A stretch of 64,000 nt of DNA, taken from the NCBI GenBank assembly GCA_016784175.1, contig JADHVC010000002.1, positions 330-64,329 of the forward strand, read 5' to 3'. The position numbers were made by a program, and so were the translations under genes. The stretch comes from Patescibacteria group bacterium (GTDB taxonomy: Bacteria; Patescibacteriota; Patescibacteriia; Patescibacteriales; BS150m-G62). Positions 4,765 through 39,108 of this stretch are shown here, piece after piece (position 1 is the stretch's first letter; each line of letters starts with the position of its first letter). Below the pieces are notes generated by a model that was not told the origin of the DNA, made no database searches, and saw nothing but the letters and a program-made list of their open reading frames with translations.

Positions 4765-4785
4765 TATATTTCATGAATAAAAAAA

Positions 4786-9456: not shown

Positions 9457-9479
9457 ATAATTACTCACTATATCTATAT
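9457..9479. mobile_element. Solo terminus relic (23 nt) of the foldback element
   Basis: ATAATTACTCACTATATCTATAT compared with the element terminus GTAACTACTCACTATATCTACAT (copy 59921-). About 20 of 23 positions match. Confidence 0.55.
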
Positions 9480-9528
9480 ATTTTTTAAATTTCTTGCTTA
9501 TTACCCTAAAATGAGTTTAAATTAGATT

Positions 9529-10644: not shown

Positions 10645-10655
10645 TGAGCAGTTAC
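10621..10655. mobile_element. Fragment (terminal 35 nt) of the foldback element overlapping the prfB 3' end
   Basis: AGCGAAAAAATAATGCAGACATAGTGAGCAGTTAC matches element ends (compare 61804-61838, GCGCTCAAAAATAATACAGACATAGTGAGCAGTTAC). The prfB stop codon TAG (10642-10644) lies inside it. Confidence 0.75.
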
Positions 10656-10699
10656 AACAGAAAATTATTGATGAGGCTGAAAAGATAAACAAATAAAAA

Positions 10700-13281: not shown

Positions 13282-13383
13282 ATATTTTTTCCTTATTTAA
13301 TTGTGTAAAGAACAAAGGAGAAAAGTTATTCTCACTAACCTTATTTATAGAACTATATAAAAACTTTGTCAAGTTAAATGCAT

Positions 13384-13467
13384 GTAACTGCTCACTATGT
13401 CTGCATTATTTTTGAGCGCATATGGAATATGTAGTAATTTTTAGCAGAATTTAACTTAAAAAAAATT
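13384..13467 (+). mobile_element. Fragment (left ~84 nt) of the foldback element
   Basis: GTAACTGCTCACTATGTCTGCATTATTTTTGAGCGCATATGGAATATGTAGTAATTTTTAGCAGAATTTAACTTAAAAAA... then diverges from the consensus. Confidence 0.85.
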
Positions 13468-13475
13468 AACTTAGG

Positions 13476-13504
13476 TTGAATATTAGTTGTTATTGTTCTA
13501 CTAT
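13476..13504 (+). promoter_or_regulatory. Sigma70-like promoter candidate for dnaE
   Basis: TTGAAT (13476-13481), a 17-nt spacer, then TACTAT (13499-13504), 49 nt upstream of the dnaE ATG. AT-rich context makes chance matches common. Confidence 0.3.
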
Positions 13505-13552
13505 TAAGGATAGGGTTTTAGCCAAAATTAATATTTTTTAAGTTTAAATAAA

Positions 13553-16500
13553 ATGTCTTTTATCCATTTACATGTTCATTCGCATTATTCTCTTCTGGAT
13601 GGCTTGTCTAGGTTTAATGAATTGATCGAAATTGCACAGGCAGATGGAGCAAATGCTGTTGCTTTAACTGATCATGGTGTAATGTATGGCATAATCGAGT
13701 TTTATCAAGCTTGTAAAAAGGCGGGCATTAAACCTATTGTTGGTTTTGAGGCATATATGGCCAAGGGTTCAATGTTGGAAAAGGTGACCAAGCAAGATGA
13801 AAAGCGTAATTATCATATATTACTTTTGGCTCGGAACAATCAGGGCTATAAAAATTTAATCAAACTTACTTCTATTGCACATCTAGAGGGTTTTTATTAT
13901 AAGCCACGCATAGACTGGGAAACACTTCAAAAATATTCCGAAGGGCTAATTGCTTGTTCGGCTTGTTTGGGTGGAGAAATACCACAATTAATTTTATCTG
14001 ACAAATACGATAAAGCCAAAAAAAGAGCACAAGAACACGAAGAGCTTTTTGGAAAGGGTCACTATTACTTAGAAATTCAGCCTCACCCTACTATTCCAGA
14101 GCAAGATCAAGTAAATCAAAAAATAATTCAAATAGCTAGAGAGACTGGTATTCCATTGGTTGCTACAAACGACTTGCACTACTTAAAGCCTGACGATTAT
14201 GACGCTCAGGACGTTCTTTTGTGCTTGCAAACAAAAGCCAAGAAGAATGATGTTGGTAGGTTTAGTCTTCATGGAAAGGATTTTTACTACAAGAGTGAGC
14301 AGGAAATGCGAGAGGCTTTCCTAGATGTTCAAGAGGCCGTAGACAATACTCAAGTTATTGCAGATATGTGTGATGTTGAAATCGAATTAGGTAATATTCA
14401 GTTGCCTTCTTTCGAAGTGCCAGAGGGTTTTGATGACTTTACATACCTAGAAAAGATTTGTCATGACGGTTTATTGGTTAGATATGAAAAAGATTATAAT
14501 AATGTAGACGAAGAAGTGCGTACCAGATTAGACTTTGAGTTATCGGTTATTAAGAAAATGGGGTGGCCATCATATTTTTCTATCGTTGCTGATTTTGTAA
14601 TGTGGGCTAAGAATAGAGGGATCGCTGTTGGGCCTGGGCGTGGATCTGCTGCTGGGTCGCTAGTTTGCTATGTGATAGGTATCACAAACTTAGATCCGAT
14701 TAAATACGAACTCCTTTTTGAGCGTTTCTTGAATCCCGAGCGTGTATCTATGCCCGATATCGATATGGACTTTTCGGATAATCGAAGAGAAGAAGTTTTG
14801 CGGTATGTTGAGCAAAAATATGGTAAGGATCATGTAGCGCAAATTATTACATTTGGAACAATGGCGGCTCGAGTGGCTATTCGTGATGTTGGTCGTGTCC
14901 TAGATATTCCATTGGCTTTATGTGACAAGTTGGCTAAATTAGTTCCAATGTTTTCTACTTTAAGTGACGCGCTAGAAAATACAGCCGAATTTAAAGATCT
15001 TTATGACAAAGATCCTCAGGCCAAACAAATTGTTGACTTTTCTCTGCGACTAGAAGGTGTGGCAAGGCATGCATCCACTCACGCTTGTGGTGTTTTGATA
15101 ACAAAAAATCCTCTAACAGATTACACCCCGCTACAATTTGGTTCGCAAGAGGGGGGTGACGGGCAACGAGGTATTGTATCGCAATATTCACTTCATCCAG
15201 TAGAGGACTTGGGTCTGCTTAAAATGGATTTTTTAGGTTTAAAAAACCTTACAATAATTGAGTCTGCTATTCGAATTATTAAAGAATCCAATGGCGTTGA
15301 AATAGATATTGAAAAAATACCTCTTGATGACAAACTTGCATATAAATTATTCCAAGATGGAGAAACAACAGGTGTCTTTCAATTCGAGTCATCGGGAATG
15401 AAGCGCTACTTAAAAGACTTGAAACCAACCGAGCTGGAAGATATTATCGCTATGGTGGCCCTCTATCGTCCTGGACCAATGGAGTGGATTCCAGATTTTA
15501 TTGCCGGTAAACATGGCACAAGGACCATCCAATATCTACATCCTAAGCTAGAGCCAATTTTAAGAAATACTTATGGAGTAGCAATTTACCAAGAGCAAGT
15601 TATGCGTATGGCAAGAGACTTGGCTGGTTTTAGTATGGGTCAAGCAGACGTTTTGCGTAAGGCGATGGGTAAAAAGATTGTAAAGTTGTTGGCTGAACAA
15701 AAAGATAAGTTCTTGAACGGGTGTGAAGATAATAACATTGATAGGCGACTCGCTGAACAAATTTTTTCGTTTATTGAACCTTTCGCGGGTTACGGTTTCA
15801 ACAGAAGTCACGCAGCCTGTTACGCTATGATTGGCTATCAAACAGCCTACCTAAAGGCTCACTATCCGGCAGAATTTATGGCTGCTTTATTAACTGCCGA
15901 TCAGCAGCATATCGACAGAATATCGATAGAGATTGACGAATGCAAGGAGATGGGAATAGATGTATTGCAGCCTAATGTTAATAAATCTTTTGAGTCGTTT
16001 ACAGTTGTTAAAAATACAGAAACAGGTAAGAAAGAAATACGTTTTGGTTTAAGGGCGATAAAAAATGTTGGAACAAATATCTCTGAATTTATCATCAAAG
16101 AGAGGATAGAAAATGGAGAATTCTTGGATCTAAGCGACCTATTGGAGCGAGTTATTAATAGAGATATGAACAAGAAGTCTTTAGATAGTTTGATCAAATG
16201 CGGGGCAATGGATGATTTTGGTGATCGAGGAAAATTAATAGCGAACATGGATAATTTACTTGAGTTTAGTAAAGAAGTGGGTAAACTTAAAGCTAATAAT
16301 CAAAATAGTTTATTTGGTGATGTGACTGGTGTAAATAGTATAAATAAGGTTAGGCTGGATAAAACTGGTGTGGTAGAAAAGCAAGATAAGTTAAGATGGG
16401 AAAAGGAACTTCTTGGTCTGTATATTACCGAACATCCGTTTAACGAATATAGAAAATATCTAGAAGGTTTTTGTGTAAATTTGCTTGATTTGCAGGGCTG

Positions 16501-17103: not shown

Positions 17104-17292
17104 ATAACTGCTCACTATACCTGCATCACTTTTTCGCTTAGGATGGAATGTTGGGCAATTTTTTACGCACAATTTAACAAAAATTTTAAACTCGCTTCAC
17201 TCAAACATAAAATTTTTTAAGTTAAATTCTGCTAAAAATTACTACATATTCCATATGCGCTCAAAAATAATGCAGGTATAGTTAGCAGTTAC
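17104..17292 (-). mobile_element. Foldback MITE-like element, full copy (189 bp)
   Basis: ATAACTGCTCACTATACCTGCAT...ATGCAGGTATAGTTAGCAGTTAC. Reverse orientation relative to 39109-39298. No clear flanking direct repeat. Confidence 0.85.
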
Positions 17293-17293
17293 T

Positions 17294-17336
17294 AAAAAAA
17301 AAGTAAAGCCGCATGGTCATCATGCGGCTTTTTTCT
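17294..17336. terminator. Bidirectional rho-independent terminator
   Basis: AAGCCGCATG (17306-17315) pairs with CATGCGGCTT (17321-17330), loop GTCAT. An A9 run lies upstream and a T-run downstream. It sits between convergent dnaE and the giant gene. Confidence 0.8.
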
Positions 17337-17340: not shown

Positions 17341-20300
17341 CTATCTTTTAGCTCCTGAGTAGGCTATTGCTCGGACTATATCCCAAGCAAGAGCGCTTTT
17401 AGGATTACCTTTGTATATATTCTTGAAACTCTTGATGGCTGCTTTCTCAGAATCTAAGTTGCGATTCGTTGGTCTTAATCCATAAGCTATAATTGTTACA
17501 GCTGCATCATCATGAGGGTTAATTCTATCGGGCACCCTCTTGTAGATAGTCTTGAATTCTTGGATAGCTCTTTCTTCTGAGGCCGCATTTCTTTGGTTTG
17601 TCCACCTACCGTTAGCTATTTTTATTACATCTTCCCAGTCTGTTAGTGTGGTTGGGAGTCTGTCGAATGCAGATTTAAAACTACTTACTGCACCGGCTCT
17701 TTCTCCGGCCCCAAGTTTAAGTGTGGTGAATGTGCCGTAGGTAATGAATTCGTTCATAGCAGTCTTTGATTCATCGCTAACCACTTGTTTCTTAACTAAT
17801 TCGGAAATATACTTGGTATTTGTAAGAGCTTCGCTTTCCAAATTTCTCTTTGTGTTGAATTTCGCAACGAATGCATCAATATTAGCTGCAAATACTTCTT
17901 TAGCTTCGCTAAGAATAGACTTAATTAAGTCAGAGTCAGATGTATTCGCTTGTTCTTGTGATTTGCTTTCTGTTGATGCTGCTTCTGCAACTTTTGCATC
18001 TATTGTTAATCTCGCAAGTGCATTTGCCTTGTCAACGATCGCTTGCCATGCTGGGATTAATCTATTTGTAGTTAATACGGTTGTTGTGCTTAAATTACCA
18101 TTAGCATCATACACTTGATAGGTTGGCGCTACATCTGAAACATAACCTCCTCCCCCTCCTCCTCCACCATTATTCGATGGAGCAACATATATTGCATTGC
18201 AACTATTGCCAGAAAGTTCATAACCATTATCGCAAGTTATTACACATGAATTATTTATACTACCGTTATTAACTGTTTTGTTAGAACAAACTTGAATTTC
18301 AGTCGAGGTAGCAGATTCATTATTCCCAGTATCCAATGCTGTGATCTGATAGTAATATACTGTAAACGCAGCTGTAGTCGCATCGGTGAATGTCGAAGTA
18401 GTAATGTCGATAACATTTACCATGTTTGTTGAACTAGCAGTAAATCCAGTTACTGCATCTCTATAAATATTATATTTTGCTAGATCAGGTTCAGTATTGT
18501 CATCCCAGTTAAGAACTACTGTTGTTCCGGTGCCTGATGTTTGACTTAAATTAGTTGGCGCAATAGGTGCAGTTACATCAGCGCAGAAATTACCATTTTT
18601 CGTAAAGCCTAGATTACAAGTTATTACACAATTATTATCAATACTTCCGTTAGCTACTGTGCTATTTGAACATAGTTGAAGTTCAGTGGCAATGACAGAT
18701 TCGTTACCGCTGTCGTCAGCTGCTGTAACTGTGTAGTAGTAGACTGTGAATGCTGCAGTAGTGGCATCAGTAAAGTTGGATGCTGTAACTTGGCTGCCAT
18801 TTACTTGATTAGCGATGTCAGCTGTGACCCCTGTCGATGTTGCGCGATAGACTTCATACTCTAATAGATCATTTTCAACATTATCTGCCCAATTAATAGT
18901 AACCGAAGTTCCATTGCCAGCTGTTTGACTTAGCCCCGTTGGAGCGTCTGGTGCTGTTGAATCGGTTGGAGTTGTAGCGCCAAAAATTGTTAAGTGATCT
19001 GTGTTAGAGTTTAAGGCGATTTTGTAATCGGCATAAGTATTTGCATTGCCAGCTAGTGCTGTAGCAAAAGCGCTGAAGTCAGTTACCGTTGTCCAATCTG
19101 TATCATTCACATCAGCTTTTGTATACGCAGTTTTCGTAGTGGACATTGCAACCCAGTTACTCAAAGAAGTATCCCAATAAGAGTTAGTAAGTGTAGATAA
19201 CTTTGCATAATTGCTTAACGCTGCGCTTATTTCATCTTTATAATAAACTAATTCAATTTCAATGTCATTACTTAGGTTAGTTATTGCTGCTCCAGACGAA
19301 TCATTAGCAGTAATTTCTTTACCTATTCCACCTAAAGGACTAGCTGTACTTGTTTGTGAAACATTGCTTACTTCTTTCGAGGTTATGCTTCCACTAGTTG
19401 CTTCACTTCCAAGTGCATTCGGCGGAACAATAATTCTTATTCCAGATCCACCTGCGCCACTATTATCTAATGAACCTCCACTTGATGGGGTGATAGATTG
19501 AGCTTTAAGTTTTGTGTCCCAGTTAGCAATCGGCGTTAATCTAATGTTATTACTATTTGAGTCCGAACCACTAATTGTTATTGTCCCGAAAGTTGATTGA
19601 GAATATCCATCGGCGACCGCCTTTAGTCTGTAAGTACTATCTACGACTGGTATAGAAAATGTTCCATCCGACTTGGTTGTAGCACCTATTCTTTTTTTAT
19701 TGATCGTGTCTTCTACCCAAACCCAACCATCTAGAACCTCTTCGCCTGCATCATAGTCGGTGTCGCTATTTAAGTCGTTGTATATAGTTCCAGTGATGCT
19801 TCTATTAGCGCTTACTAACTCATAATCAGCAGCAGTATCAGCACTGATCACGATAGCTGTTGGAGGTTGTGGTATGTAGCCGGTAGCTTCAACGCCTGTT
19901 TTGTAATTACCATTTTTAACTGTGATGGAGTAAGCTCCAGTTGCGTCAGTAGTGTCTCCTAGGTAGTCACCAAGAGCTTCGTTCCCAACCCATACCCATG
20001 CGTTCTCGATTGGACCAGAAGTGTCAGTGATTGTGCCGGTTAGTGTAAATATCTCTGTAGCGCTATCTGGTAAAACGAAAGTAACTGTTGAATCTCCGTT
20101 GAATGTGACTGGGTTTGTAGCTGGCTCAATTGATCCTATGCCAGGAATGTGCATATGGAATAGGTAGGTTCCATTTTTTAATTTGATTGCTGCATTTGAA
20201 GCAAGAGTAGATAGTTTTATGTTTTTATGGAATTCATTTGTAGTGCTATCGATATTAATGATAGCTTCCTGTGAGCTAAGTCCATTCGTGAATGCAAGCG

Positions 20301-23300
20301 TTACAGTATTTAGCGCACCGCTAGCTAAAGTAACATCAACGCCACTTGTATTGGCACTTAAGTTAAGGTTGGCTGGACTAGCTGGATAATCGTCAGCATC
20401 AGTTCTTTCGATTTCACCATAGCTCGCTGTCCATGTATCGATTCTATATATACCAGCTGGTGCTTTTATGGAATACATACCAGAGCTATTCGTTTGACCA
20501 ATATATTCTTCTCCGCTTAATTCGCCTCCTGCAGTATATTTCAATGCTCTAACTGGAGTGTTTGCTTGAACTTCATTATTGACAGTGATAGTTCCGCTAA
20601 TAGTATAGTAAGTTAGTGTTGTATCTGGAGTAATATTTAATGTTTGATTCTCACCATTAATAGTTACAGTTTCAGTTGTCGATAATCCAAACTCTGGAAT
20701 ATTAGCTTCTACGCTCCAAGTGCCGTTATCAACATAAAGAATGTAATTACCACTTGAATCTGTGATAGTTTTTGCCTGTCCTAGCCCATCTTGTTTGGTT
20801 GCCCAAATTGGAGCTAGAATAACCGCGTTAGTACCGTCTGTAACTTTACCAGAAATGGTGTAGCTTGGCTTGATAATTTTAAATATTAATTTATTTGCAG
20901 CCGTAATTAATGCATTATTTTCATAAACATCAGCCGTTGCATTACCATCTACATTGTTAATATCATTAGCTTTAACTTTAACATTTTTGTTAGTCTTGAT
21001 TGGTAAGCCAGCTTTAAATACTCCAACCGAATAATCACCATCGTTAGCTAATTTTAAAATAAATTTACCATCAGTGTCCGTTGTTGTATAAGACCCTTGA
21101 GTTGTCCCGTTTGGTTGATAAGCATTAACCTGAGCGTTGCTTATTCCAACTCCTGCCCCATCAAGTACGAAACCGACAATCTCTTTAGAAGTGCTTGTAA
21201 GTGTAAGATTAAAGCTTTGAGCGCTAGATCCGTCTGACTCTACATTAATTGGACGAGGTGCAACCCAATTAGGCATACTTACTTTTTCGATTGATGTTAT
21301 TTTTTCGCGCGCTGGCAAGACTTGTATTTTCCAAATGCCAGCCTTAAGATATAGCACTTCTGCAATTGCGCCTCCCGTACCAGTTACTTTCTTTGTGATA
21401 TTTAGTTCAGGCGAATTTGCAACGATATCAACATTCTCGCCATTTGGGATGCCTGTAATATTAACGGTAATTGCTGCAACTGAACCTGCATCAGCTCGTT
21501 TGAATGTAATATTCTTTGGGTTTACACCTGCACTAATAGTGATTGGTTCAGGAGCACTTATGCCAATATAATCTGCGTTGCTACTATCAAGAGTGATAGA
21601 TTGATCTGTAAATATTTGATAATTGCTAAGTGGAAGGCTAGAGAAAGAATAATTTCCAGTACCGTCATTAGCTAGACTGACTATAGTTTCCAATGGACCA
21701 GTTGTTGGTGAATCCAAATAAATTTTTATAGTGTCGCTACCGTCAGTGTCGGCAGGATTAATCCCTAAGATATTTCCACTTAAACTAGCACTACCAGCTG
21801 GTTTAATAAAGAAGGGGAGTCCAGCAATCGTTTCGCTCAAGTAACCATTTTCATCTAAGATCTTCATGTCGACAGAATATCCGCCAGTGTCAGGACCTCT
21901 AGGAATAGACGAATTAACAATTCCAGCTAAGTCAAAGTGTAAATAATCCTTAATTGGAGTAGTTCCAGTCACGCCAAGGTCAACCGTAATTATGTTAGCA
22001 CTTGTATCAATCGTAACACCGTCATTATTTGCCCCGCCAGAAGTTTCTGCTTCAGTTGAGAAGCTGACAGTCCCACTATTAACTTCATTTAAGTCATTAT
22101 TTGCAGGTGAATATACATCCTTTTTAGCGTTATTAATATTAAACCCTTTTGGAAAAGTTAATAATATTTTGTAATTGTCTTTAATTTGTTTATTTGTAGG
22201 AAGGTTAACAAAATAAGTTGTAATTTGACTAGCTAGGGCGTTCATAGGGATAGCTCCCGCTTTCATTATTCCCATGTCAGACATAGAGAGAGTTGCTCCT
22301 TCGCCGCTACTATTAGGAACGAGTTCGCCTTTAGTGCTGCTGCTAGACTGGATAGGTGCTTGAAACGAGGTTGTTCCGCTTAATATATTGCCCGAAAGAT
22401 CAGTCGCCCCACTACCATCTACATTAGCGCTTGCCATATCAACATAGATATTTTTACCGCTAACATTTGCAGTCTGTAGTCCCAAATTTTTTATTACAAC
22501 TGTGTTGCTAACTGCATCATAAGTAAAGCTAGAATTAGTAGTGCTAAGGTCAATATTTGTGCCAGATCCGACTACAGTTTCAGCATCACCCCATCTAAGT
22601 TTATAATTTGTTAGGTTAAGCACTGATGATGACCATTTTTGTGTGTTTGCAGCTGTTGATGCATTCATTGGTTCAGAAAATGTAATAGCTACACCGTTGT
22701 CATCTGCATTGCTAAACATTATCTTTGGCGCAATTGTATCTAGCGTAGAGTTTGTTTGAAAGTAAACCACAGTACTGCTAGCTAAATAGTTACCAACCAT
22801 ATCGGCTAGACCATTCGAGCCGCCAATAATTTTTAAAGCATAATTTGCATTTGGGGCCAATACTTGACTTGGAATAAAATTCAATGAATAGGTCTCCGCA
22901 TTGTAGTTAATATTACCACTAATTTGTGATGTTCCTCTTAGTAAAGAAATTGTATTTGAATTAATTGTTGTTGGATTAATGCCTTCTGAAAATTGAAGAA
23001 TCAGTGAACCAGGATTAATCGATATATTTGTAGCGTTGTTGGCTGGCCAAGTGCCAAGAATGGTAGGTCTGGTACTATCAACAACAGAAGTTGTATTTAC
23101 TTTAAAGCGACTTGCAAACACAACGCTATTCGCAGTATTTCTGCTAATATTAGGATCACCCATTGGTATTCCACTAGCGCTTTTTAATGCCCCGGTTGCT
23201 ATTATTTTGTAACTACCTGCTATTAAATTCGAACTTGGTGTAATTGTTATATTTTTCTTTGTGCTATCAATACTAACTGTTGAGCTAACAAGAGTCTCTA

Positions 23301-26046
23301 TTTCGACATTATCACTAATTGTAGTTTTTAAAAGTTTAATATTACCACTTGCAGTGATAGAGCTAGTATCCATAGGATCAGAGAAGCTGATATTTATCTT
23401 TGTATTTGGTGCAATATTAGACATTCCATCGCTAGGAGTCACCCCAATAATTCTAGGTGGTGTCATGTTGCCTTGTCCAAAATTAGTCCACGCATCTTCT
23501 GTACTAAAATCAGCTCCAGTAGTAAATGTAATAGTATAGTTTCCATTCGAATTGTTACCGACTATGCTATTGCCAGACATGTCTCTAATATTGCCACTAA
23601 TTATTAGAGTGTAAGTTTTATTAGCTTCTAAACCTTCACTTGGTACCGTAATAACTCCTAGGTGAGTATTGTGAGAAAATCCATACGCAACATTGTCGTC
23701 ATGATTGTCGCTATGGACAACAGTGTATCCTGCCACTGGATTGTTGATTGGATTAGTTTGATCGGCACTTAATACTACATTGCTCGTTGTAAATAAGGTA
23801 GAATCAATATCTTCGGAAAAAACAACAAATATTTTATAACTACTATCCTTGGGGGGTACGCCGGTTTGGCTATCAGTTGGGAAGGTCGCAACGATTATAG
23901 GTTTAGTGTTATCACCTGTTGATCCACCACCTGTCCCAGTGTAAAGGACTTTGTTTTGACCTGTAATGTTTGAGCTTCCGACAAAAATGTCCGAGATCGA
24001 TTCTTCAAAATAATTATCCTTAGATATCACGAGGTTGTAAGGGCGATTGTTCTTGACATCTAAAGTGTAATTGCCACTTGAATCTGTAGTAGCAGAAGCA
24101 CCAGTGCCCTCTGCAAATACGAGCGCATTAGAAATACCAGCACCTTGTTCGTCTACAATGGTCCCAGATATAGTGCTTGTATCGCCCCAAGCACTCGAGT
24201 CTTCAACTTTAATAACTAAAGGTGATGATTCTGCTTCTTCGTGTGTTATTGCAAGTGGGTCAGCTGAAAGTTGAGTTTCGCCATTGTTAGTTAATACTTG
24301 CAAATGGTAAAGTATTCCGTTTGTGATTGCGTCAGTATCATCGATATGCGCCTGAGGGATTGTGAATTTAAAGTAACCATTCGATTCTCTAGAGCCAATA
24401 ATATGGTAATGTTTTGGGTCCAGATGGTTCATGACTCCTGTGCCGCTGTCGATAGCGTAATGTAATTCTGAGCTAATATTGATGGTCGGTGTTCTTGGAT
24501 CACTAGCTTGGATAAATATATCAAGGTCAGATCCAGCTTTTGCAATGTTTATTGGCATGTGCTTTATCATTGGACCGTTAGCAGCTTGTCCACCATAATT
24601 CGAGAAATTTGGTTGTTCGGTTGGTGATGCAGAGCTTTGCGGGTTAATAGTAGTCCTTTTTACAAAATCAAGTGCATTATTGTCAGCATCCCACCCATTA
24701 CCCATGCTTTCATCTTTCCCACCACTTATCATGTTGACCAATATTGATGTCCCAAAGGCCTTTCTTTCTAGTGATTCATTGTCGCTAAGAGCACTAGCAG
24801 CAAAGCTTTCTGCATACTCTGCAGAACCCCAACCTAGTTTGTCAGCTTCTTTTGTTCCAGTAAATAATCGTATGTGACCACCTTCATCAGTTAAGCCAAT
24901 AACAGACTTGCAGTAATCTAGTGTACTCGCCGGACAAGTCATATCTGCTGCGCCATAAAATTTTGCTGACCCAATTAAGTAGTAGCTATAAGGCTCAATG
25001 TATGTGTTGGCTGGAAGCGTAACCTTTGTACTCCATGACTCAGAGGTGGCAGTACTGTATTGTAACATCCATCCACCTATATTCACCCTTGTACTTCCAG
25101 AGTTATATAGCTCGATGAATTCTGACCAAGCTTCTCCGTTAATTCTTGTAGCTAATTCCGATATCCTTACATTAATCGGATAAGTAATACTTTTTACTGT
25201 CTCTACTCCAAGATTACCAGCGATATCTGTAATATTAGGCGAAATTGTTAGTGTAGTATCTTCGGTTGGAATTACTTTGCTCGATATTATTCTGTAAACA
25301 TTGTCTGAAATTTTGTCAACTTGATGAATAGCTATTTCATTATTAAAGGTATAATTGCTTGCATTTTTAGCTAAAATTTCTTTTACAGCTTCGGAGAATT
25401 TTACATCAACCGATATGGGGTTAACTAAGTTAGCATCTTCTACCGTTGGTTGAATAGAGTCTATAGTTATTGCGCTTGATGTTATTGTAGACAATGGCTC
25501 AGCACCATCATCACTTAAAATTACTCCACCGGGCACTATTGTAACTCTTATTTCGTGGTCAGCAGAGCTAGCTGCTGCTGTTTGAATTGTAAGATAAAAG
25601 GTTTTACTAGTGCCAATCGAAATGGAATTCTTTAAAAAAAGATAAATTTCACTTTCACTGTACCAGTCACTAGATGAATCCAGTATTACTAAGCTATCAT
25701 TCGAGTCAAACCCATTGGCTAAACTTTCAGATTCTTGATAAAGAGAAACGCCACTCAATGAACTGTCGTTAATACTTTTTAAATCTGCTTGCGAAAAGCC
25801 TGTTCCATTAAGTTGAACAATTATATCTGTTAGTTTTCTACCAGGCTTACCCGCTATATCTATTTGAAAAACGGCTCTTGAGCTAGAGTCTTTTTTTATT
25901 TTATTGTTCGTTTGATCAATCAAATCAGTAATAACTACCGATCCATCATTAGCACTCGCCTGCATGGGTGCTAAAAAAATTACTAATAAAAAACACACCA
26001 TTAAGCGTGCGAAATGATACCATGTTCGTTTTGTTTGTTTGATCAT
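17341..26046 (-). CDS. Giant (2901 aa) multidomain secreted surface protein
   Basis: Signal peptide (LMVCFLLVIFLAPMQASA). Lamin-tail-domain-like segment (RISELATRINGEAWSEFIELYNSGSTRVNIGGWMLQY). Several SbsA/Big-like Ig modules (PTILGTWPANNATNISINP...). At least five CarboxypepD_reg-like modules (ISGKVTDGTNA...TDSSGNYILYV). Two FN3 plus 4-Cys modules. A G8 tract. Three C-terminal ~35-40-aa repeats ending AYSGAKR. Confidence 0.85.
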   Translation of the reverse strand: MIKQTKRTWYHFARLMVCFLLVIFLAPMQASANDGSVVITDLIDQTNNKIKKDSSSRAVFQIDIAGKPGRKLTDIIVQLNGTGFSQADLKSINDSSLSGVSLYQESESLANGFDSNDSLVILDSSSDWYSESEIYLFLKNSISIGTSKTFYLTIQTAAASSADHEIRVTIVPGGVILSDDGAEPLSTITSSAITIDSIQPTVEDANLVNPISVDVKFSEAVKEILAKNASNYTFNNEIAIHQVDKISDNVYRIISSKVIPTEDTTLTISPNITDIAGNLGVETVKSITYPINVRISELATRINGEAWSEFIELYNSGSTRVNIGGWMLQYSTATSESWSTKVTLPANTYIEPYSYYLIGSAKFYGAADMTCPASTLDYCKSVIGLTDEGGHIRLFTGTKEADKLGWGSAEYAESFAASALSDNESLERKAFGTSILVNMISGGKDESMGNGWDADNNALDFVKRTTINPQSSASPTEQPNFSNYGGQAANGPMIKHMPINIAKAGSDLDIFIQASDPRTPTINISSELHYAIDSGTGVMNHLDPKHYHIIGSRESNGYFKFTIPQAHIDDTDAITNGILYHLQVLTNNGETQLSADPLAITHEEAESSPLVIKVEDSSAWGDTSTISGTIVDEQGAGISNALVFAEGTGASATTDSSGNYTLDVKNNRPYNLVISKDNYFEESISDIFVGSSNITGQNKVLYTGTGGGSTGDNTKPIIVATFPTDSQTGVPPKDSSYKIFVVFSEDIDSTLFTTSNVVLSADQTNPINNPVAGYTVVHSDNHDDNVAYGFSHNTHLGVITVPSEGLEANKTYTLIISGNIRDMSGNSIVGNNSNGNYTITFTTGADFSTEDAWTNFGQGNMTPPRIIGVTPSDGMSNIAPNTKINISFSDPMDTSSITASGNIKLLKTTISDNVEIETLVSSTVSIDSTKKNITITPSSNLIAGSYKIIATGALKSASGIPMGDPNISRNTANSVVFASRFKVNTTSVVDSTRPTILGTWPANNATNISINPGSLILQFSEGINPTTINSNTISLLRGTSQISGNINYNAETYSLNFIPSQVLAPNANYALKIIGGSNGLADMVGNYLASSTVVYFQTNSTLDTIAPKIMFSNADDNGVAITFSEPMNASTAANTQKWSSSVLNLTNYKLRWGDAETVVGSGTNIDLSTTNSSFTYDAVSNTVVIKNLGLQTANVSGKNIYVDMASANVDGSGATDLSGNILSGTTSFQAPIQSSSSTKGELVPNSSGEGATLSMSDMGIMKAGAIPMNALASQITTYFVNLPTNKQIKDNYKILLTFPKGFNINNAKKDVYSPANNDLNEVNSGTVSFSTEAETSGGANNDGVTIDTSANIITVDLGVTGTTPIKDYLHFDLAGIVNSSIPRGPDTGGYSVDMKILDENGYLSETIAGLPFFIKPAGSASLSGNILGINPADTDGSDTIKIYLDSPTTGPLETIVSLANDGTGNYSFSSLPLSNYQIFTDQSITLDSSNADYIGISAPEPITISAGVNPKNITFKRADAGSVAAITVNITGIPNGENVDIVANSPELNITKKVTGTGGAIAEVLYLKAGIWKIQVLPAREKITSIEKVSMPNWVAPRPINVESDGSSAQSFNLTLTSTSKEIVGFVLDGAGVGISNAQVNAYQPNGTTQGSYTTTDTDGKFILKLANDGDYSVGVFKAGLPIKTNKNVKVKANDINNVDGNATADVYENNALITAANKLIFKIIKPSYTISGKVTDGTNAVILAPIWATKQDGLGQAKTITDSSGNYILYVDNGTWSVEANIPEFGLSTTETVTINGENQTLNITPDTTLTYYTISGTITVNNEVQANTPVRALKYTAGGELSGEEYIGQTNSSGMYSIKAPAGIYRIDTWTASYGEIERTDADDYPASPANLNLSANTSGVDVTLASGALNTVTLAFTNGLSSQEAIINIDSTTNEFHKNIKLSTLASNAAIKLKNGTYLFHMHIPGIGSIEPATNPVTFNGDSTVTFVLPDSATEIFTLTGTITDTSGPIENAWVWVGNEALGDYLGDTTDATGAYSITVKNGNYKTGVEATGYIPQPPTAIVISADTAADYELVSANRSITGTIYNDLNSDTDYDAGEEVLDGWVWVEDTINKKRIGATTKSDGTFSIPVVDSTYRLKAVADGYSQSTFGTITISGSDSNSNNIRLTPIANWDTKLKAQSITPSSGGSLDNSGAGGSGIRIIVPPNALGSEATSGSITSKEVSNVSQTSTASPLGGIGKEITANDSSGAAITNLSNDIEIELVYYKDEISAALSNYAKLSTLTNSYWDTSLSNWVAMSTTKTAYTKADVNDTDWTTVTDFSAFATALAGNANTYADYKIALNSNTDHLTIFGATTPTDSTAPDAPTGLSQTAGNGTSVTINWADNVENDLLEYEVYRATSTGVTADIANQVNGSQVTASNFTDATTAAFTVYYYTVTAADDSGNESVIATELQLCSNSTVANGSIDNNCVITCNLGFTKNGNFCADVTAPIAPTNLSQTSGTGTTVVLNWDDNTEPDLAKYNIYRDAVTGFTASSTNMVNVIDITTSTFTDATTAAFTVYYYQITALDTGNNESATSTEIQVCSNKTVNNGSINNSCVITCDNGYELSGNSCNAIYVAPSNNGGGGGGGGYVSDVAPTYQVYDANGNLSTTTVLTTNRLIPAWQAIVDKANALARLTIDAKVAEAASTESKSQEQANTSDSDLIKSILSEAKEVFAANIDAFVAKFNTKRNLESEALTNTKYISELVKKQVVSDESKTAMNEFITYGTFTTLKLGAGERAGAVSSFKSAFDRLPTTLTDWEDVIKIANGRWTNQRNAASEERAIQEFKTIYKRVPDRINPHDDAAVTIIAYGLRPTNRNLDSEKAAIKSFKNIYKGNPKSALAWDIVRAIAYSGAKR

Positions 26047-26204
26047 AGGAGGCAGCTGGAAACAAAAGATATATCTTATATATGTGCTAATATATCCTTA
26101 CTTCGATTATTTATAAAATAGTATTCAAAAATTGAAAGGTGGAGTTTTCCACATCTGTAATTCTATTATAACAAAAATGCGAGTATTTGCTTAATCGCAT
26201 TAGT

Positions 26205-26270
26205 GTAACTGCCCGCTATATCTGCATTATTTTTGAGCGCATATGGAATATGTAGTAATTTTTAGCAGAT
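26205..26270 (+). mobile_element. Fragment (left ~66 nt) of the foldback element
   Basis: GTAACTGCCCGCTATATCTGCATTATTTTTGAGCGCATATGGAATATGTAGTAATTTTTAGCAGA. It is truncated 4 nt from the stop codon of 26274..27176(-). Confidence 0.85.
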
Positions 26271-26273: not shown

Positions 26274-27176
26274 TTATTCGATGCCTAACTCTATTTTATA
26301 TTTTTTTATCCAATCTGGTAAGTTTATCTTTGGCGTCCAATTTAAAAGTTCGTGCGCTAAAGTATTGTTCGCTAATGTTTCGCGCGGTTCAATTCTAGCT
26401 GGTATGTGAATCGAGTCTCCACCTATCATCAAAGCTACTTCATTAACGCTATAATTCTTTCCTCGTCCAATATTAATCACTTCTCCTCTACCAACATTTT
26501 TACTTTTAGCGGCAAGTATATTGGCCTCTACTACATCGATAACGCTGGTAAAATCTCTTTTTTGTTCACCATCGCCAGTAATTGTTAGGGGTTGACCTTT
26601 TAGTCTTTGGTTTGCAAAAATTCCCATAACTAAACAATAAGCGCCTTCGAGCAACATACGTTGTCCATAAACATTAAAATAGCGTAAAGATACCGTTGGT
26701 AAATTATATAGGTCGCTAAATAAACGACAATAAAGTTCTCCTATATATTTTTGAAGTCCATATGGACTCATAGCCTTGGTTGGCATATTTTCATGCAGTG
26801 GCATTTCGACTTGATCTCCATATGCAGAAGACGATGCACTATATATTACTTTTTTTACTTTTGCATCACGAGCTGCTGTAAGAACGCTAAGAGTTCCATT
26901 TAAATTTATATCATTTGATGCAATGGGATCTTTAATGGAAGGCTCAACTCTTGCGAAAGCAGCAAGGTGAAAAACATAATCGACACCTTCAAATAAAGGT
27001 TTAATTTTAGCAAAATCACGCATATCTAATTTGTAAAATTCAGCTTCTTTGTTAATATTCTCCTCTAATCCTGTCGACAAATTATCAATAATAATTACTT
27101 CATTTCCTTGTTTAATTAATTCATCAGTTAAATTGGAGCCAATAAAACCTGCTCCTCCTGTAATAAGACATTTCAT
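26274..27176 (-). CDS. NAD-dependent sugar epimerase/dehydratase (extended SDR)
   Basis: Rossmann motif ITGGAGFIGSNL. Catalytic S (ASSSAYG). YxxxK (YGLQKYIGE). 300 aa. Confidence 0.85.
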   Translation of the reverse strand: MKCLITGGAGFIGSNLTDELIKQGNEVIIIDNLSTGLEENINKEAEFYKLDMRDFAKIKPLFEGVDYVFHLAAFARVEPSIKDPIASNDINLNGTLSVLTAARDAKVKKVIYSASSSAYGDQVEMPLHENMPTKAMSPYGLQKYIGELYCRLFSDLYNLPTVSLRYFNVYGQRMLLEGAYCLVMGIFANQRLKGQPLTITGDGEQKRDFTSVIDVVEANILAAKSKNVGRGEVINIGRGKNYSVNEVALMIGGDSIHIPARIEPRETLANNTLAHELLNWTPKINLPDWIKKYKIELGIE

Positions 27177-27207
27177 AAATTTAAATTTAATTATAAGTAA
27201 TATTAAG

Positions 27208-27396
27208 GTAACCGCTCACTGTGTCTGCATTATTTTTAAGCGCATATGGAATATGTAGTAATTTTTAGCAGAACTTAACTTAAAAAATTTTATGTTTGAG
27301 TGAAGCAAGTTTAAAATTTTTGTTAAATTGTGTGTAAAAAATTGCACAATATTCCATCCTAAGCGAAAAAGTGATGTAGATATAGTGAGCAGTTAG
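27208..27396 (+). mobile_element. Foldback MITE-like element, full copy (189 bp)
   Basis: GTAACCGCTCACTGTGTCTGCAT...ATGTAGATATAGTGAGCAGTTAG. No clear flanking direct repeat. Confidence 0.85.
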
Positions 27397-27412
27397 TGTT
27401 ATTTTTATATTA

Positions 27413-29098: not shown

Positions 29099-29671
29099 AT
29101 GGCTTTTCAAAAACAACTCGGGAAAATTATAGACGCTGGCAAGGAGAAAATATTGCTAATCAGGGTGAAAAACAAGGACAAAAGTGCTTTTGTAGAAGCC
29201 TATGATAAGTATGTCGATCAAGTTTATCGATTTATCTATTTTAAAGTTTCTGACAAGGAAGAGGTCAAGGACTTAACATCTCTGACATTTTTGAAGGCTT
29301 GGGAGTATATCCAAGATAGAGGTATTAATGAAGATCGTAGTATTAAGGCATTGTTCTACAAGATCGCGAGAAATGTCGTTATAGACTACTACAGGGCTCA
29401 AAGTAAAAGACAGGTTACATCCATAGAGCTCTTAGGTGAGATCCGATCAGATGTAGATATAATCACAAACCTAGAGAATAAACTGGAGATCGAAAGAGTT
29501 TCTGGAAAAATGCTTCAATTAAAAAGTGAATATCGCGAAGTTTTAATGTTCTATTATGTTGATGAACTTTCAACCAGAGAGATCGCAAAAATTTTAGGTA
29601 AGACAAGTGGAAATATAAGAGTTACATTGCATAGAGCTTTAAAAACGTTTAAAGAAATCGTAAATGAATAA
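29099..29671 (+). CDS. ECF-type sigma-70 family RNA polymerase sigma factor
   Basis: Region 2 (FVEAYDKYVDQVYRFIYFKVSDKEEVKDLTSLTFLKAW) and region 4 HTH (LSTREIAKILGKTSGNIRVTLHRALKTF). Confidence 0.85.
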   Translation: MAFQKQLGKIIDAGKEKILLIRVKNKDKSAFVEAYDKYVDQVYRFIYFKVSDKEEVKDLTSLTFLKAWEYIQDRGINEDRSIKALFYKIARNVVIDYYRAQSKRQVTSIELLGEIRSDVDIITNLENKLEIERVSGKMLQLKSEYREVLMFYYVDELSTREIAKILGKTSGNIRVTLHRALKTFKEIVNE

Positions 29672-30647
29672 TGAAATATATAAACAAATAAATATTCTTA
29701 AAGATATTAAGCCAAGTGATGATTGGAAAAGTAAAAATAGAGAATTACTTTTAAGTCAAATAAGTAGTGCAAATATCGCAGACATAAAAGAATTAAGCTT
29801 AGTTAACGCATTGTTTAAGACGATTAGTGGTGAGTTGCGTTTATTTGTAGCTCAACCAACTTTGTTTGTGACCATACTAGCTATACTAATGATTGGTCTT
29901 CCGATAGTAAGTGCAGAGTTCGTTAACGATTCAAAGCCAGGCGATTCTCTCTATATAGCAAAATTGGTTAGTGAAGACGCTCAACTTGCTGTTACTTTTG
30001 ATGAAAGAAAGAAAGCAAAACTTGGTCTAGGTTTTGCAGAAAATAGAACAAGAGAGATTACTAAAGTGTTAGTAGAATTTAACGAAAATGAGCAAGACAA
30101 AGACCAAAAAGTAGAAAAATTAACCAATGACTTTAAAGAAGAGATAGCAAAAATTAAAACATACGAAGTAGCAAGTAACATAAAAGCAAAAGTAAGAAAA
30201 GAAAAGGCAATTGTTGTAGAAGATAATAAACAGGTAATTATTCAAAGTAGCATCGATGAAACCTTAACAAAAGAAGAAGATACAAAGGTATTTAGCGCTT
30301 ATCTTGGTAGATCAACTGCTGGAATTCAGCTATCTCAAGATGAGGTAAAAAAAGAATTTCATAAAGTATTAAGTGATGCAGCCGACTTGATTGACTCCAA
30401 GGACTATGTAGGAACATTAAATAAGCTAAAAGAAGCCAATCAGATTATCTTAAAAGTTACTGATGATGAGAGAATCCAAGAGGAAGTGGTAGAGAAACCT
30501 CAGGAAATACTAGAGATTGTTGAGACACTTCAAGCAGACAATATTACCAATAAAGAAGGATTAGCATCTAGTACGTTGAATAGCACGGTAGAGCCAGTGG
30601 AAAATAAAATTATCGAGGATAATAATAAAGATAAAGAAGAAAAATAA
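29664..30647 (+). CDS. DUF5667-like membrane protein, candidate anti-sigma factor
   Basis: Overlaps the sigma gene by 8 nt (ATGAATAA). One TM helix (LFVTILAILMIGLPIV). PGDSLYIAKLVSEDAQLAVTFDERKKAKLGLGFAENRTREI matches my recollection of DUF5667. Charged helical C-terminus. Confidence 0.5.
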   Translation: MNNEIYKQINILKDIKPSDDWKSKNRELLLSQISSANIADIKELSLVNALFKTISGELRLFVAQPTLFVTILAILMIGLPIVSAEFVNDSKPGDSLYIAKLVSEDAQLAVTFDERKKAKLGLGFAENRTREITKVLVEFNENEQDKDQKVEKLTNDFKEEIAKIKTYEVASNIKAKVRKEKAIVVEDNKQVIIQSSIDETLTKEEDTKVFSAYLGRSTAGIQLSQDEVKKEFHKVLSDAADLIDSKDYVGTLNKLKEANQIILKVTDDERIQEEVVEKPQEILEIVETLQADNITNKEGLASSTLNSTVEPVENKIIEDNNKDKEEK

Positions 30648-31799: not shown

Positions 31800-34700
31800 A
31801 TGAGAAAATTACGCAAAACATTCATCTCAGGCGTGATGTTCACCACAATCTTTGCATTAAGTGGTATTGCTGCAGTTAGTCCTGCACAAGCTGCTGCATC
31901 TGCTGGTGACCTAATCAAGATGGACGGTTTAGATACTGTTTATTATCTTGGCGCTGACGGTAAGAGATATGTATTCCCAAATGCACAAACTTATTTTAGT
32001 TGGTATCCTGATTTTTCAAGCGTTGTAACTGTTCCTCAATCAGAGCTAGAGTCATACAGACTTGGTTCTAATGTAACAATGAGAGCTGGTACAAAATTAG
32101 TTAAAATTACTACAGATCCAATGGTATATGCTGTTGAACCAGGTGGTAATTTAAGATCTATTGTTAGTGAAGCTAATGCAATAGCTCTATATGGAGCAGA
32201 TTGGGCAAAAAGAGTAATCGATGTGCCAGATTCATTTTTCACTAACTACAAAGTATTAGCTGATTTAGCTGTAGGTAAATATCCTGCTGGTCAGTTAGTA
32301 AAGAGTGGTGATGCTACTTATTACTTCGACGGTACAGATTACCGTGCGGTAGCAAGTGATGCAGCTATGTCTGCAAATCGTTTTCAAGCTTCAAATGTAG
32401 TTACTACAACTATGGCTATTACAGCTGGTGGTACTGCACTTGCAGGCGCTGAAGCTACTTTAATCGACACTTCTGCTAGTGGTGCTACAACTGGTATTAC
32501 TCCAGGCGTAGGCACAGGTGCTACTGTATCTGTAGCTAGTGATACTCCTTACAGTTCTACTATTCCTAGTAGTTCAGCTAGAGTAACTTTCACTAAATTT
32601 AACATTGCAGCTGCTAGTGATGGCGACGTAACTGTTAATGAGATTACAGTAAGACGAACAGGTGTTGGTGCTTACAACGAATTAAGTAGAGTTTACCTAT
32701 ATGATGGTATGACAAGATTAAGTAACGGTAGAACTATCAATTCTGATAGTCACAGTACTACTTTTTCAGGCCTAGGTTTGAAAGTAGCTGCTGGTACTGT
32801 TAAAACAATCACTATTGCTGCAGATACAGCTAGTGGTTCAGCTGGTAACCATTCTTTGGGTATCAATGCTGCTTCTGATATTAAGACAAATGGTGCTTCT
32901 GTTTCTGGTTCATTTCCAGTTAAAGGTAATACTATGAGTCTTTCATCTGTTACTGCTGGTACAGTTGTGCTTGCAGGCAATGGTACATTATCAAACCCAA
33001 CAATCGGTGATGCTAATGTTTCAGTTGCTCAATTTAAGTTAACAGCTGCTTCAGAGGACTTAATGTTTGGAGACATTACTCTAAAACAAGATGGTACAAT
33101 CGACACATCTTTATTGAGTAATTTTACCTTAATGCAAGGTACAACTAATATTCCTGTTACAACTACTATTAACGGAAGAAATGTAATGGTTAAATTAGAC
33201 ACTCCATTTAAGTTAGTTGACGGTTCTGGTAAAATCTTTACTCTAAAAGCTAACGTAAGCAGTGATACAGAAGTTGGTAAAACTATTGTATTCTATGTAA
33301 ATAATGTAGCTGATGTTAATACACAAAGTATTAATTACGGAGTAGGTGTTACAGCAACAATCACAGCTTATGATGCTGCCGGTGATTCACAAACATTAAC
33401 ATTACAAGGTGGTGGAATTACAATTTCTAACCTAAGCTCACCTTCAAGTGATGTTAAAGTAAATTCAACAGAAGTTGAGTTAACTCGAGTTGCTGTAAAA
33501 GCGTCTTCTGATAGTGCAGAAATTCAAAAAATGACTTTAAGAATCGCTACAACTAAAGCAACTTCTGGTGGTGATGATTATGGTACTTTCAGAGATATGG
33601 CTGATGATGCTGATTATGACAGCGGTACTGACACACTTTTACTTAAAAATATTAAGTTAAAGGATGCAGACACTGGTGCTACTATTGGTTCAGCTAAAGC
33701 TATTACTGATGCTGATAACTTCAGTGCAGCTAATGATGTTGATGCAAGTTTAGATTTTGTGTTCGATGATTATTTCACAATTGCAAAGGGTGCAACAAGA
33801 AATATTATCGCTGTAGCTGATATTGACACAACACAAATTTCTAGTGTAGTTTACGCTACAACAATGCAATTTGGTTCTAGTGACTTTACAGCTAAAGATT
33901 CACAAGATAATACTATAAGTGATGTTGTTCCTGCTACTGATATTGCTGGTTACAACAGAACAACAAGAACTTCATCATTAACAATTTCAAGAGCTTCAAG
34001 CCCAGAAACAAGAACTGTGGTTAAAGGTTCTTCAGTTGATGCTTTGGGTATAATATTTGCAACTGGTTCTGGAACAGGTAATGATGTTAAGCTTTCAGGT
34101 TTAACACTTGATATCTTCGTTGATGCTGACACTACTTTAGCAAGTGACTTTGCATTAAACACAGCAACTGGTGATGCAGATGGCGATACAACAACTATTC
34201 TTGCTAATGCTTTAGTGCAAGACGTAAGTCTATATGTTGGTGCTGACAAAATTGCTGGTCCTGTAAGTGTTGACACTAACGGTAGAGCAATCTTTACTTC
34301 AAGTAAATTTGTAAATGGTTACTACAATCTTCCAGCTGGCGCAAGCAAAACAGTCGTTGTTCGTGCAACTGCATCTGGCAATGCTCCTTATGGTGCTGCT
34401 GATGATAGATTTGCATTCACATTCGATGCTGCTGATGTTACAGCAGAAGACTCAGAAGGTAGTGTAACTCCAACTGTTACAGGTACAGATCTTAACGGTC
34501 TTGCTACACCTGGTGTTTATGTCCAAGTTACTGGTAACGGTACTATCACTGTTGCTGCTGACTCTGGCAAACCTGCTTCTTCTGTAGTTATCGCTGGTCG
34601 TTCAACAGAACAAGAGTTAACAAGAGTGTTGCTTTCAACAACAAAAGAAGATTTCTTAGTTGACGAAATTACATTCGCAGTTAACGAAGCTGGTTCTTAT

Positions 34701-39071: not shown

Positions 39072-39108
39072 GTTTTTTTAAAGCATTGTGCTAATATGAA
39101 AAAATATT

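Follow-up and report, generated by a model that had tools for sequence, protein, structure and literature searches.

A 2901-residue modular surface protein in a Patescibacteria genome and the unnamed C-terminal module that it shares with other secreted proteins

A complete gene for a giant secreted protein

The gene described here lies at positions 17341..26046, on the minus strand, of a 64,000-nucleotide stretch (the window) of contig JADHVC010000002.1 from a Patescibacteria genome (assembly GCA_016784175.1). The window is ordinary chromosomal DNA from an AT-rich Candidate Phyla Radiation (CPR) genome (35% GC) and includes genes for RF-1/2, dnaE, a comF-like protein and purC. Starting with ATG and ending with TAG, the gene encodes a giant protein of 2901 aa, which we read as, probably, a wall-anchored fibril used for contact or adhesion. 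A first-pass annotation, made from the sequence letters, had described a single open reading frame (ORF) covering 13.6% of the window, and the ORF call and translation bear this out, with no interruption. The protein is already deposited (NCBI MBL7057830.1, identical, labelled Patescibacteria group bacterium), under the name "carboxypeptidase regulatory-like domain-containing protein", and giant surface proteins are a familiar theme in CPR bacteria. What is new here is an unnamed family of C-terminal modules, of which the end of this protein is a member, together with a "choice of anchor" pattern among related giants.

As the source is a metagenome-assembled contig and misassembly readily affects large modular genes, the ORF might be taken for an artefact, either repeats strung together in assembly or a decaying pseudogene that happens to be read through. 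The first of these was also what the first-pass annotation had named as fatal to its description. However, the DNA repeats inside the gene are at most 74-83% identical and no longer than 90 nt (the longest has 74% identity), and a Tandem Repeats Finder scan found no relevant tandem repeat within the gene. Comparison of the protein with itself yielded, as its sole duplicated unit, a diverged pair of FN3 domains with cysteine modules (aa 2362-2489 versus 2490-2625, ~57% identity). Independent public assemblies from ENA, where the contigs carrying the gene reach 113 kb, and from Logan give the same ORF, with identities of 2900/2901 and 2873/2874, that is, a single substitution. The two closest homologues (61% and 58% identity; 2888 and 2889 aa, within 13 aa of the giant) align with it end to end and nearly without gaps, and the signal peptide, the terminator and the C-terminal module are each found where expected. 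Since the DNA has no near-identical internal repeats and other assemblies agree, an assembly artefact was rejected; this explanation as a whole is effectively refuted already and we consider it exceedingly unlikely. The giant ORF is a genuine, conserved gene.

The predicted protein has a mass of 307 kDa, a pI of 4.5, 30% Ser+Thr+Asn and 11 Cys in all. Its N-terminus carries the features of a Sec-type signal peptide (aa 1-32, 25951..26046, minus strand), namely a K/R-rich n-region (KQTKR), a hydrophobic core and an ASA|ND site, in agreement with the first-pass annotation. The core is the one hydrophobic stretch of the whole protein, within aa 8-33, and cleavage would probably occur at the AXA site A30-S31-A32, before N33, leaving a mature protein of ~304 kDa. 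An equivalent N-terminus, with ...A(N/H)DGSV at its end, is present in the two close relatives P0002 and P0003. Neither an LPXTG motif nor a C-terminal hydrophobic segment was found in the giant, which thus has no sortase signal and no transmembrane (TM) segment. In the Pfam scan there was no RTX/HemolysinCabind domain and no domain related to type I secretion; unlike the giant RTX/Bap/LapA adhesins exported by that route, the protein has a Sec signal peptide.

At the other end of the gene, 10 nt 3' of the stop codon, a bidirectional intrinsic terminator hairpin (17305..17331; 27 nt, GC-rich, with T-runs on both strands) is common to the giant gene and the convergent dnaE. A promoter scan upstream of the giant gene performed no better than chance. 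It is correct, as had been pointed out, that no Shine-Dalgarno sequence precedes the ATG, but this carries no weight because such a motif is rare in the window (5 of 41 ORFs).

A collinear string of mostly beta-sandwich domains

Domains were assigned by Pfam scans of the whole protein and of its segments, by family conservation and by structure models; all coordinates given below are on the minus strand. In the mature chain, ~24 distinct domains, mostly beta-sandwiches, follow one another collinearly and in a fixed order, with an unassigned head first and then LTD, Big_5 Ig units, CarboxypepD_reg units, two family-specific domains and FN3 units. The head (aa 33-197, 25456..25950) is the least conserved part and has no Pfam or NCBIfam match. 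Next to it lies a weak Big_5-like Ig unit (aa ~198-290, 25177..25455), for which Big_5 gives E = 0.3 at aa 191-278 and whose boundaries are our estimate. The LTD domain that the first-pass annotation had placed at about 24750-25185 scored above the curated Pfam cut-off (PF00932, cut-off 34.3 bits; the match at aa 292-406, nt 24829-25173, reaches 37.7 bits when the whole protein is scanned and 43.3 for the segment). From the family consensus it appears to continue in a conserved extension to aa ~470, containing a Cys371/Cys379 pair (24637..25173 for domain and extension). The region that follows, at aa ~485-612 (24211..24594, with estimated boundaries), is conserved across the giant family and has no Pfam match.

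The first CarboxypepD_reg (transthyretin-like) domain is located at aa 625-700 (23947..24174; best stretch of PF13620 at aa 625-696), and precedes an array of SbsA-type Ig-like domains (22360..23913) comprising Big_5 units at aa 712-843, ~862-985 and 990-1098 and probably, judging by its sequence pattern, a fourth Big_5-like unit at aa ~1105-1229. Overall, PF13205 (Big_5) reached 95 bits with three stretches above threshold, two further Big_5-like units being weaker; the three to four units recovered in this way correspond to the multiple SbsA/Big-type Ig units of the first-pass annotation. After a flexible S/G-rich linker (aa 1230-1261, 22264..22359), modelled by AlphaFold2 with a predicted local distance difference test score (pLDDT) below 50 over model residues 1-32, comes a beta domain that can be regarded as a family signature (aa 1264-1414, 21805..22257). 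It has no Pfam match and is all-beta in the AlphaFold2 model (pLDDT ~70-90), and even in homologues whose overall identity is 41-43% it is 66% identical, which places it among the best-conserved parts of the passenger, as we call the chain carried by the C-terminal module.

About eight beta-sandwich domains then form a further array (aa 1419-2158, 19573..21792), as indicated by Pfam, the all-beta AlphaFold2 model and Foldseek. It holds four CarboxypepD_reg units, at about aa 1623-1700, 1705-1796, 2001-2060 and 2109-2171, and with these the "at least five" such units noticed earlier are matched by five Pfam stretches (168 bits summed). The second family-signature domain (aa 2180-2359, 18970..19509) is modelled as a beta-sandwich with helical decorations and ends ...HLTIFGATTP; it belongs to no Pfam family, is 69-77% identical to its counterparts in P0002 and P0003, and is conserved in all groups of the family. 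The duplicated FN3 units (18172..18963), still 74% identical in their DNA between 18233-18322 and 18617-18706, follow in tandem. Both FN3 units predicted earlier were found, although they pass the fn3 cut-off of 25 bits only when the segment is scanned alone (33.1 bits, versus 21.9 in the whole-protein scan). Each is accompanied by a 30-aa module with four Cys (aa 2459-2488 and 2587-2616; pattern C-x13-C-x3-C-x10-C). The "Cys-knot-like inserts" of the first-pass annotation are therefore present as modules, but a cystine knot is an overstatement, as the Sushi and EGF matches are sub-threshold. After the passenger comes the run of eight glycines (aa 2627-2634, 18145..18168) that had been seen as a hinge.

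No catalytic or peptidase domain was found in the giant with Pfam or NCBIfam, CarboxypepD_reg being a non-catalytic beta-sandwich, and the only NCBIfam match was a sub-threshold and spurious one to CopC. By its domain content the protein is thus not a carboxypeptidase, and its database name reflects the label of a beta-sandwich and says nothing on function. The same transthyretin-like fold is repeated in the eukaryotic proteins NOMO and CPD, and a family profile run against PDB sequences matched only FN3 and CarboxypepD_reg/NOMO-type domains (NOMO2, 9c7v; CPD, 5aq0); this likeness is limited to the fold of single domains, and the giant, which belongs to an unrelated cellular setting, lacks a peptidase domain.

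Modelled with AlphaFold2 from an alignment of 20 family sequences, aa 1230-2362 are essentially all-beta (mean pLDDT 79), with a predicted template modelling score (pTM) of 0.40, as expected for beads on a string. Foldseek matched the model to SdrD B-repeats (10ps, 8vdk) and Gram-positive pilins (4oq1, 3rpk, 3kpt), and further to Bap, an extender of a large adhesin, macroglobulin domains and an archaeal S-layer protein (7ptp), all with low TM-scores, so that the likeness is at the level of generic domains. The top match was the thioester adhesin TIE of Bacillus anthracis; a thioester adhesin was ruled out, as aa 1230-2362 contain no Cys.

A helical module at the C-terminus of varied secreted proteins

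Beyond the glycine hinge the protein becomes helical. A spacer (aa 2635-2760, 17767..18144) leads to a basic C-terminal module (aa 2761-2901, 17344..17766), which ends ...WDIVRAIAYSGAKR and has a pI of 9.84, versus 4.38 for the passenger (31% Ser+Thr+Asn). The AlphaFold2 model of aa 2690-2901 is all-alpha, with ten helices, a pLDDT of 94 and a pTM of 0.88. Its first four helices (15-31, 34-40, 47-61 and 69-81 in model numbering) belong to the spacer (aa ~2703-2760) and pack onto the module, and the last six form three helix-loop-helix repeats of ~43 aa. Profile-profile comparison relates the third repeat to the first (E = 1.7e-7) and to the second (E = 2.8e-7), the first and second being more weakly related (E = 0.13). 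The helical C-terminal region with three anchor-like repeats proposed in the first-pass annotation is thus recovered. What had been missed is that these repeats belong to a large, lineage-wide C-terminal family without a name, and that related giants exchange this region for others. The module had no match in Pfam, NCBIfam or PDB sequences, and no PDB fold matched the model at E < 1.

A search with aa 2690-2901 returned 344 proteins, almost none of them with Pfam annotation and most labelled Patescibacteria, Parcubacteria or Falkowbacteria. A profile was built from 121 of these, including the C-terminus of the giant itself, which scores 228.6 bits (E = 3.7e-70) against it. When run against 1.84 billion cluster representatives, the profile gave 1,400 matches (1,221 at E <= 1e-10) and, in nearly all of the 150 matches listed, the alignment extends through the last residue of the protein (lengths 221-3605 aa). 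The core of the module, ~140 aa at the extreme C-terminus of a secreted protein, reads ...LGAGERAGV...KIANGRWP...DDAAVTVIAYGLRP...WDIVRAIAYSGAxR. At least 279 loci encoding it were found in GTDB species genomes, often two or three per genome, while an HMM search revealed no second module-bearing gene within the window.

The 79 loci that were fetched contain 81 copies of the module, of which 79 finish precisely where the reading frame stops. A hydrophobic segment resembling a signal peptide opens 50 complete carriers (270-1372 aa), and another 24 carriers extend past the fetched flank. Among the proteins with the module are S8 subtilases that have a fervidolysin-type prodomain, one GDSL lipase, one polysaccharide deacetylase and numerous Ig-rich proteins. 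The cassette typical of the small carriers consists of a passenger, a poly-Gly run, a helical spacer and the module, and many carriers unrelated to one another have Gly runs before the module. A single passenger of cytoplasmic type was seen, a DEAD-box helicase in a fusion of 681 aa (P0152), which is probably a chimera of gene calling or assembly.

In the records examined, the module is found almost only in genomes labelled Patescibacteria. Many of the module-bearing third-party annotation records of metagenome-assembled genomes are titled "uncultured Gammaproteobacteria bacterium" (loci L002, L004, L006, L012 and others). As the GC content of such loci lies in the range of the Patescibacteria-labelled ones (median 0.415 vs 0.408), these titles may be wrong.

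Given its strict C-terminal position on varied Sec-exported proteins, its presence in several copies per genome and its basic charge, the module most likely acts as a non-covalent cell-wall anchor, in function on a par with SLH, CWB2, LysM or the helical SCWP-binding domain of SbsC (PMC13635256). The absence of a membrane segment, and the peptidoglycan-binding repeats or TM helix that related giants carry instead (see below), point the same way. Like SLH, CWB2, LysM and PG_binding_1 domains, it is repeated (three times), basic and attached to many secreted proteins per genome. It differs from them in matching none of these families in Pfam (there is no SLH domain in the giant), in its helical-hairpin fold, which has no match in PDB, and in being strictly C-terminal. 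When the literature was searched for an S-layer protein or a wall anchor already described from CPR bacteria, nothing specific came up.

Related giants with different C-terminal parts

The giant belongs to a family of ~20 proteins of 2300-3650 aa, which are collinear with it at 27-61% identity and can be divided into three groups by their C-terminal parts. Group A comprises the protein in the window and eight others (P0002-P0007, P0010, P0013) with the helical C-terminal region, mostly ending ...WDIVRAIAYSGAKR; P0013 has more than one copy of the module and a different ending. In the seven members of group B (P0014-P0020), PG_binding_1 repeats occupy the equivalent position, with PG_binding_3 in addition in one of them, so that this domain and the module are interchangeable in related giants. 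PG_binding_1 (PF01471) is absent from the giant of the window according to Pfam. The four proteins of group C (P0008, P0009, P0011, P0012) have CARDB domains and then a single TM helix, three of them with an Arg/Lys-rich end.

Conservation is uneven along the chain. It is lowest in the head (first 200 residues), where the closest relatives are 41-53% and the distant ones 13-29% identical, rises to 55-77% in the rest of the passenger and is 71-79% in the anchor for close relatives, and the last 100 residues are the most conserved part of the giant (63-79%). The number of FN3/Cys units among the homologues is two, one or zero. The orthologue P0002 (61% identity) has the same neighborhood of dnaE and extracytoplasmic function (ECF) sigma factor genes.

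The one group C locus that was examined, that of P0009 (L083), has a GC content of 50% and a gene context that looks unlike CPR, with an Opp transporter, aldehyde:ferredoxin oxidoreductases and thiolase/DUF35 pairs. This context suggests that the giant family crosses phylum, and possibly domain, boundaries.

Genomic context

Upstream of the giant gene, a histidine kinase gene and a gene for an NAD-dependent sugar epimerase (26274-27176, minus strand) are found. The order continues divergently with genes for an ECF sigma factor, a DUF5667 protein, a methyltransferase, a protein of 1257 aa, a CARDB/FN3 protein of 749 aa, a Wzy_C/TPR protein and a family 4 glycosyltransferase (GT4). The gene for the ECF-type sigma-70 factor overlaps the start of the one for the DUF5667 single-pass membrane protein (29099-30647, plus strand), which is probably its anti-sigma factor. 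The 1257-aa protein (31800-35573, plus strand) is secreted, Cys-free, acidic and S/T/A-rich, and has no Pfam match. Proteins of ~1250 aa are encoded beside giant and ECF sigma genes in three genomes (47% and 26% identity); being S-layer-sized, the one in the window may itself form the S-layer or act together with the giant. The Wzy_C protein (39320-41539, plus strand) is O-antigen-ligase-like, with ten predicted TM segments and C-terminal TPR repeats, and the two GT4 genes lie on the minus strand at 41616-42809 and 51607-52773.

The ECF sigma factor, the ~1250-aa protein and the Wzy_C/TPR protein recur beside the giant in the loci of P0002 and P0010, the latter giant being 29% identical to that of the window. 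An ECF sigma gene is found near the giant gene in loci L001 and L081, and a DUF5667 gene was detected in the window and in L001 only. The PG_binding-type relative P0014 is encoded within a cluster of sugar-nucleotide and glycosyltransferase genes. Together, the Wzy_C/TPR protein, the two GT4 enzymes and the epimerase could be a set for surface glycans or for protein O-glycosylation, and the neighborhood as a whole suggests a cell-envelope, possibly protein-glycosylation, context.

At some distance from the giant gene, the window has a Gram-positive-type cluster resembling type IV secretion systems (3631-6723, plus strand; PrgI-family protein and VirB4/TraG-type P-loop ATPase), a cluster that the syntenic relative L001 has as well. 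Neither the Rfam scan nor the tRNA scan of the window gave a match.

Possible roles of the giant protein

The reading of the giant as a wall-anchored fibril for contact or adhesion can be put in the following terms. The very acidic, Ser/Thr/Asn-rich protein would be exported through the Sec pathway, and its C-terminal module would bind the wall non-covalently, through peptidoglycan or an anionic wall polymer. The passenger, possibly glycosylated, would project outward as a fibril of up to roughly 80-100 nm, a length that follows from roughly 22 beta domains of about 4 nm each, and the fast-evolving head would be at the distal tip, where it meets the environment. The likeliest role would be contact with cells or particles, as adhesin or spacer, or participation in a fibrous outer layer. 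This fits the proposal made for the CPR bacterium Vampirococcus, whose giant surface proteins are thought to build a fibrous, host-contacting surface (PMC8080830). The organisms are of a similar kind and both have very large predicted surface proteins with interaction-type domains; the likeness is one of description, and those of Vampirococcus lugosii carry WD40, PKD, integrin and DUF11 domains, which differ from those found here, and neither the family nor the anchor of our giant is discussed in that work (PMC8080830).

With fibrillar adhesins in general, the giant shares a secretion signal and a stalk of tandem beta-sandwiches (Big_5 x3, CarboxypepD_reg x5, fn3 x2). The resemblance extends to the Gram-positive MSCRAMM/pilin type (S. 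aureus SdrD; the pilins RrgB, BcpA, SpaC), which also has a signal peptide, an Ig-/transthyretin-like stalk and a C-terminal anchor that leaves the N-terminal end distal. The giant differs from that type in lacking LPXTG, TM segment and sortase signal, its anchor being a folded basic helical domain, and in having no known ligand-binding A-domain; its stalk is made of divergent domains in fixed order and it is 3-5 times larger.

Several observations weigh against a fibril for contact or adhesion. No recognized adhesive or lectin domain, by which fibrillar adhesins are otherwise defined, was found by Pfam, NCBIfam or PDB profile search, and no relative of the module with a known ligand was found in sequence or structure, so that wall binding is deduced from architecture, charge and the swapping of anchors. 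The stalk is built of dissimilar domains in an invariant order, unlike the near-identical repeats of many fibrillar adhesins, which expand and contract in number, and such an order would suit a structural or lattice protein no less well. The inter-domain geometry of the AlphaFold2 model is unreliable at its pTM, which makes the extended shape an assumption. Finally, Wzy_C/TPR genes are frequent in CPR genomes, and because of this the link to the neighborhood may be partly coincidental. As regards the first-pass annotation, which saw here the obvious candidate for host-cell or substrate attachment in an epibiotic lifestyle, the part that stands is that of a secreted, modular surface protein with a C-terminal anchoring region. 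Attachment to host cells is plausible, though it goes further than the domains by themselves suggest, and the epibiotic lifestyle was taken from the taxonomic label of the genome, not from the locus.

A different role for the same architecture would be that of a structural S-layer or sheath (glyco)protein, in which the module docks to the wall and the acidic beta chain self-assembles to give the regular layer observed outside CPR cells, with no discrete adhesin. S-layers have reportedly been seen on ultra-small groundwater CPR cells, by Luef et al. in 2015. The collinear, fixed domain order across the family would suit such a protein, as would its S-layer-like composition (acidic, rich in Ser, Thr and Asn, with very few Cys), the glycosylation-type genes nearby and around P0014, and the archaeal S-layer protein among the Foldseek matches. 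However, typical bacterial S-layer proteins are smaller than 304 kDa. The closest known layout is that of Geobacillus stearothermophilus SbsC (1099 aa), where an alpha-helical, positively charged domain that binds a wall polymer is joined to acidic beta "beads on a string" (PMC13635256), and Big_5 is the family of SbsA Ig-like domains. With these proteins the giant shares a helical basic domain, a beta chain with Big_5 and an acidic passenger; but the anchor of SbsC is N-terminal and that of the giant C-terminal, without detectable similarity in sequence or fold to solved structures, and with ~24 domains the giant is well above SbsC in size (~120 kDa, nine domains; PMC13635256). Neither SLH nor a known S-layer self-assembly domain was found by Pfam or PDB fold search, and the module, being also present on many enzymes and small proteins, appears to be a general anchor and not one specific to S-layers. 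In addition, the conserved ~1250-aa Cys-free neighbor is a better match in size, and a varying number of FN3/Cys units would be easier to accommodate in a spacer than in a lattice. On balance, we consider an S-layer role rather unlikely. The absence of a detected adhesive domain, the very acidic, Ser/Thr/Asn-rich passenger and the fast evolution of the head would also be expected of a non-adhesive protective or spacing coat, a "glycocalyx" fibril acting as shield against phages or predators, as anti-fouling layer or as a holder that keeps enzymes at a distance. The hydrolases displayed by the same module suggest a crowded functional surface layer, which would agree with this. Yet nothing positive separates a coat from adhesion, and the position of LTD and head is conserved across the family, suggesting a specific function of the tip; a coat is improbable, and we would give as little credence to the idea that the head varies for evasion rather than for ligand binding.

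A broader proposal concerns the module itself, which could be an undescribed Patescibacteria-wide anchoring system, a CPR counterpart of SLH, CWB2 and LysM, that holds the surfaceome and lets giant fibrils bridge to a host or substrate. We put this forward tentatively, as a possibility for which the odds are somewhat less than even. Much of the diversity of bacteria falls within the CPR/Patescibacteria, which are believed to live on the surface of other cells; to our knowledge, little has been established about how their surface proteins are held or which of them make contact. If the proposal is true, the module-held surfaceome would comprise proteases, lipases, deacetylases and Ig-rich proteins, with the 2901-aa giant among its largest cargoes, and its fibrils, at about 80-100 nm, would measure a considerable part of an ultra-small cell's diameter. 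The C-terminal signature ...RAIAYSGAxR would then list the displayed proteome of hundreds of uncultured genomes and offer a handle for surface display, antibody targeting and pull-downs in the few cultivable systems, and the giant would offer a definite candidate for what electron microscopy shows on such cells as a fibrous or S-layer-like envelope. Should the module not be an anchor, the finding comes down to a large modular surface protein of an ordinary kind that was already in the databases.

A dispersed repeat flanking the gene

The intergenic regions of the window contain an element of ~190 nt, resembling a miniature inverted-repeat transposable element (MITE), with terminal inverted repeats of ~27 nt (GTAACTnCTCACTATAnCTGCAT ... 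ATGCAGnTATAGTGAGnAGTTAC) and no match in Rfam. Nine full copies and several partial ones are spread over the 64 kb, with mutual identities of 84-98%. The full copies are located at 17104-17292, 27204-27404, 39105-39306, 45217-45418, 49285-49498, 52855-53056, 56728-56940, 59905-60117 and 61634-61846, and the partial ones at 13379-13565, 26201-26269, 2034-2078, 10619-10663 and 9454-9486. Two of them flank the giant gene: the full copy at 17104-17292 lies just past its terminator, outside the gene, and the partial copy at 26201-26269, consisting of one end of the element, lies 155-223 nt upstream of the start codon. The latter is the MITE fragment that had been noticed upstream of the gene (26205-26270), which is real but belongs to a dispersed repeat and is not specific to this gene. 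A 65-nt inverted repeat between the two copies (17228-17292 / 26205-26269) had raised the idea that the giant gene is a mobile or invertible segment; it was rejected, since each arm is a copy of an element that occurs ten times or more in the window, and since the synteny with dnaE is kept in a relative. The density of these MITE-like copies is unusually high for a small CPR genome.

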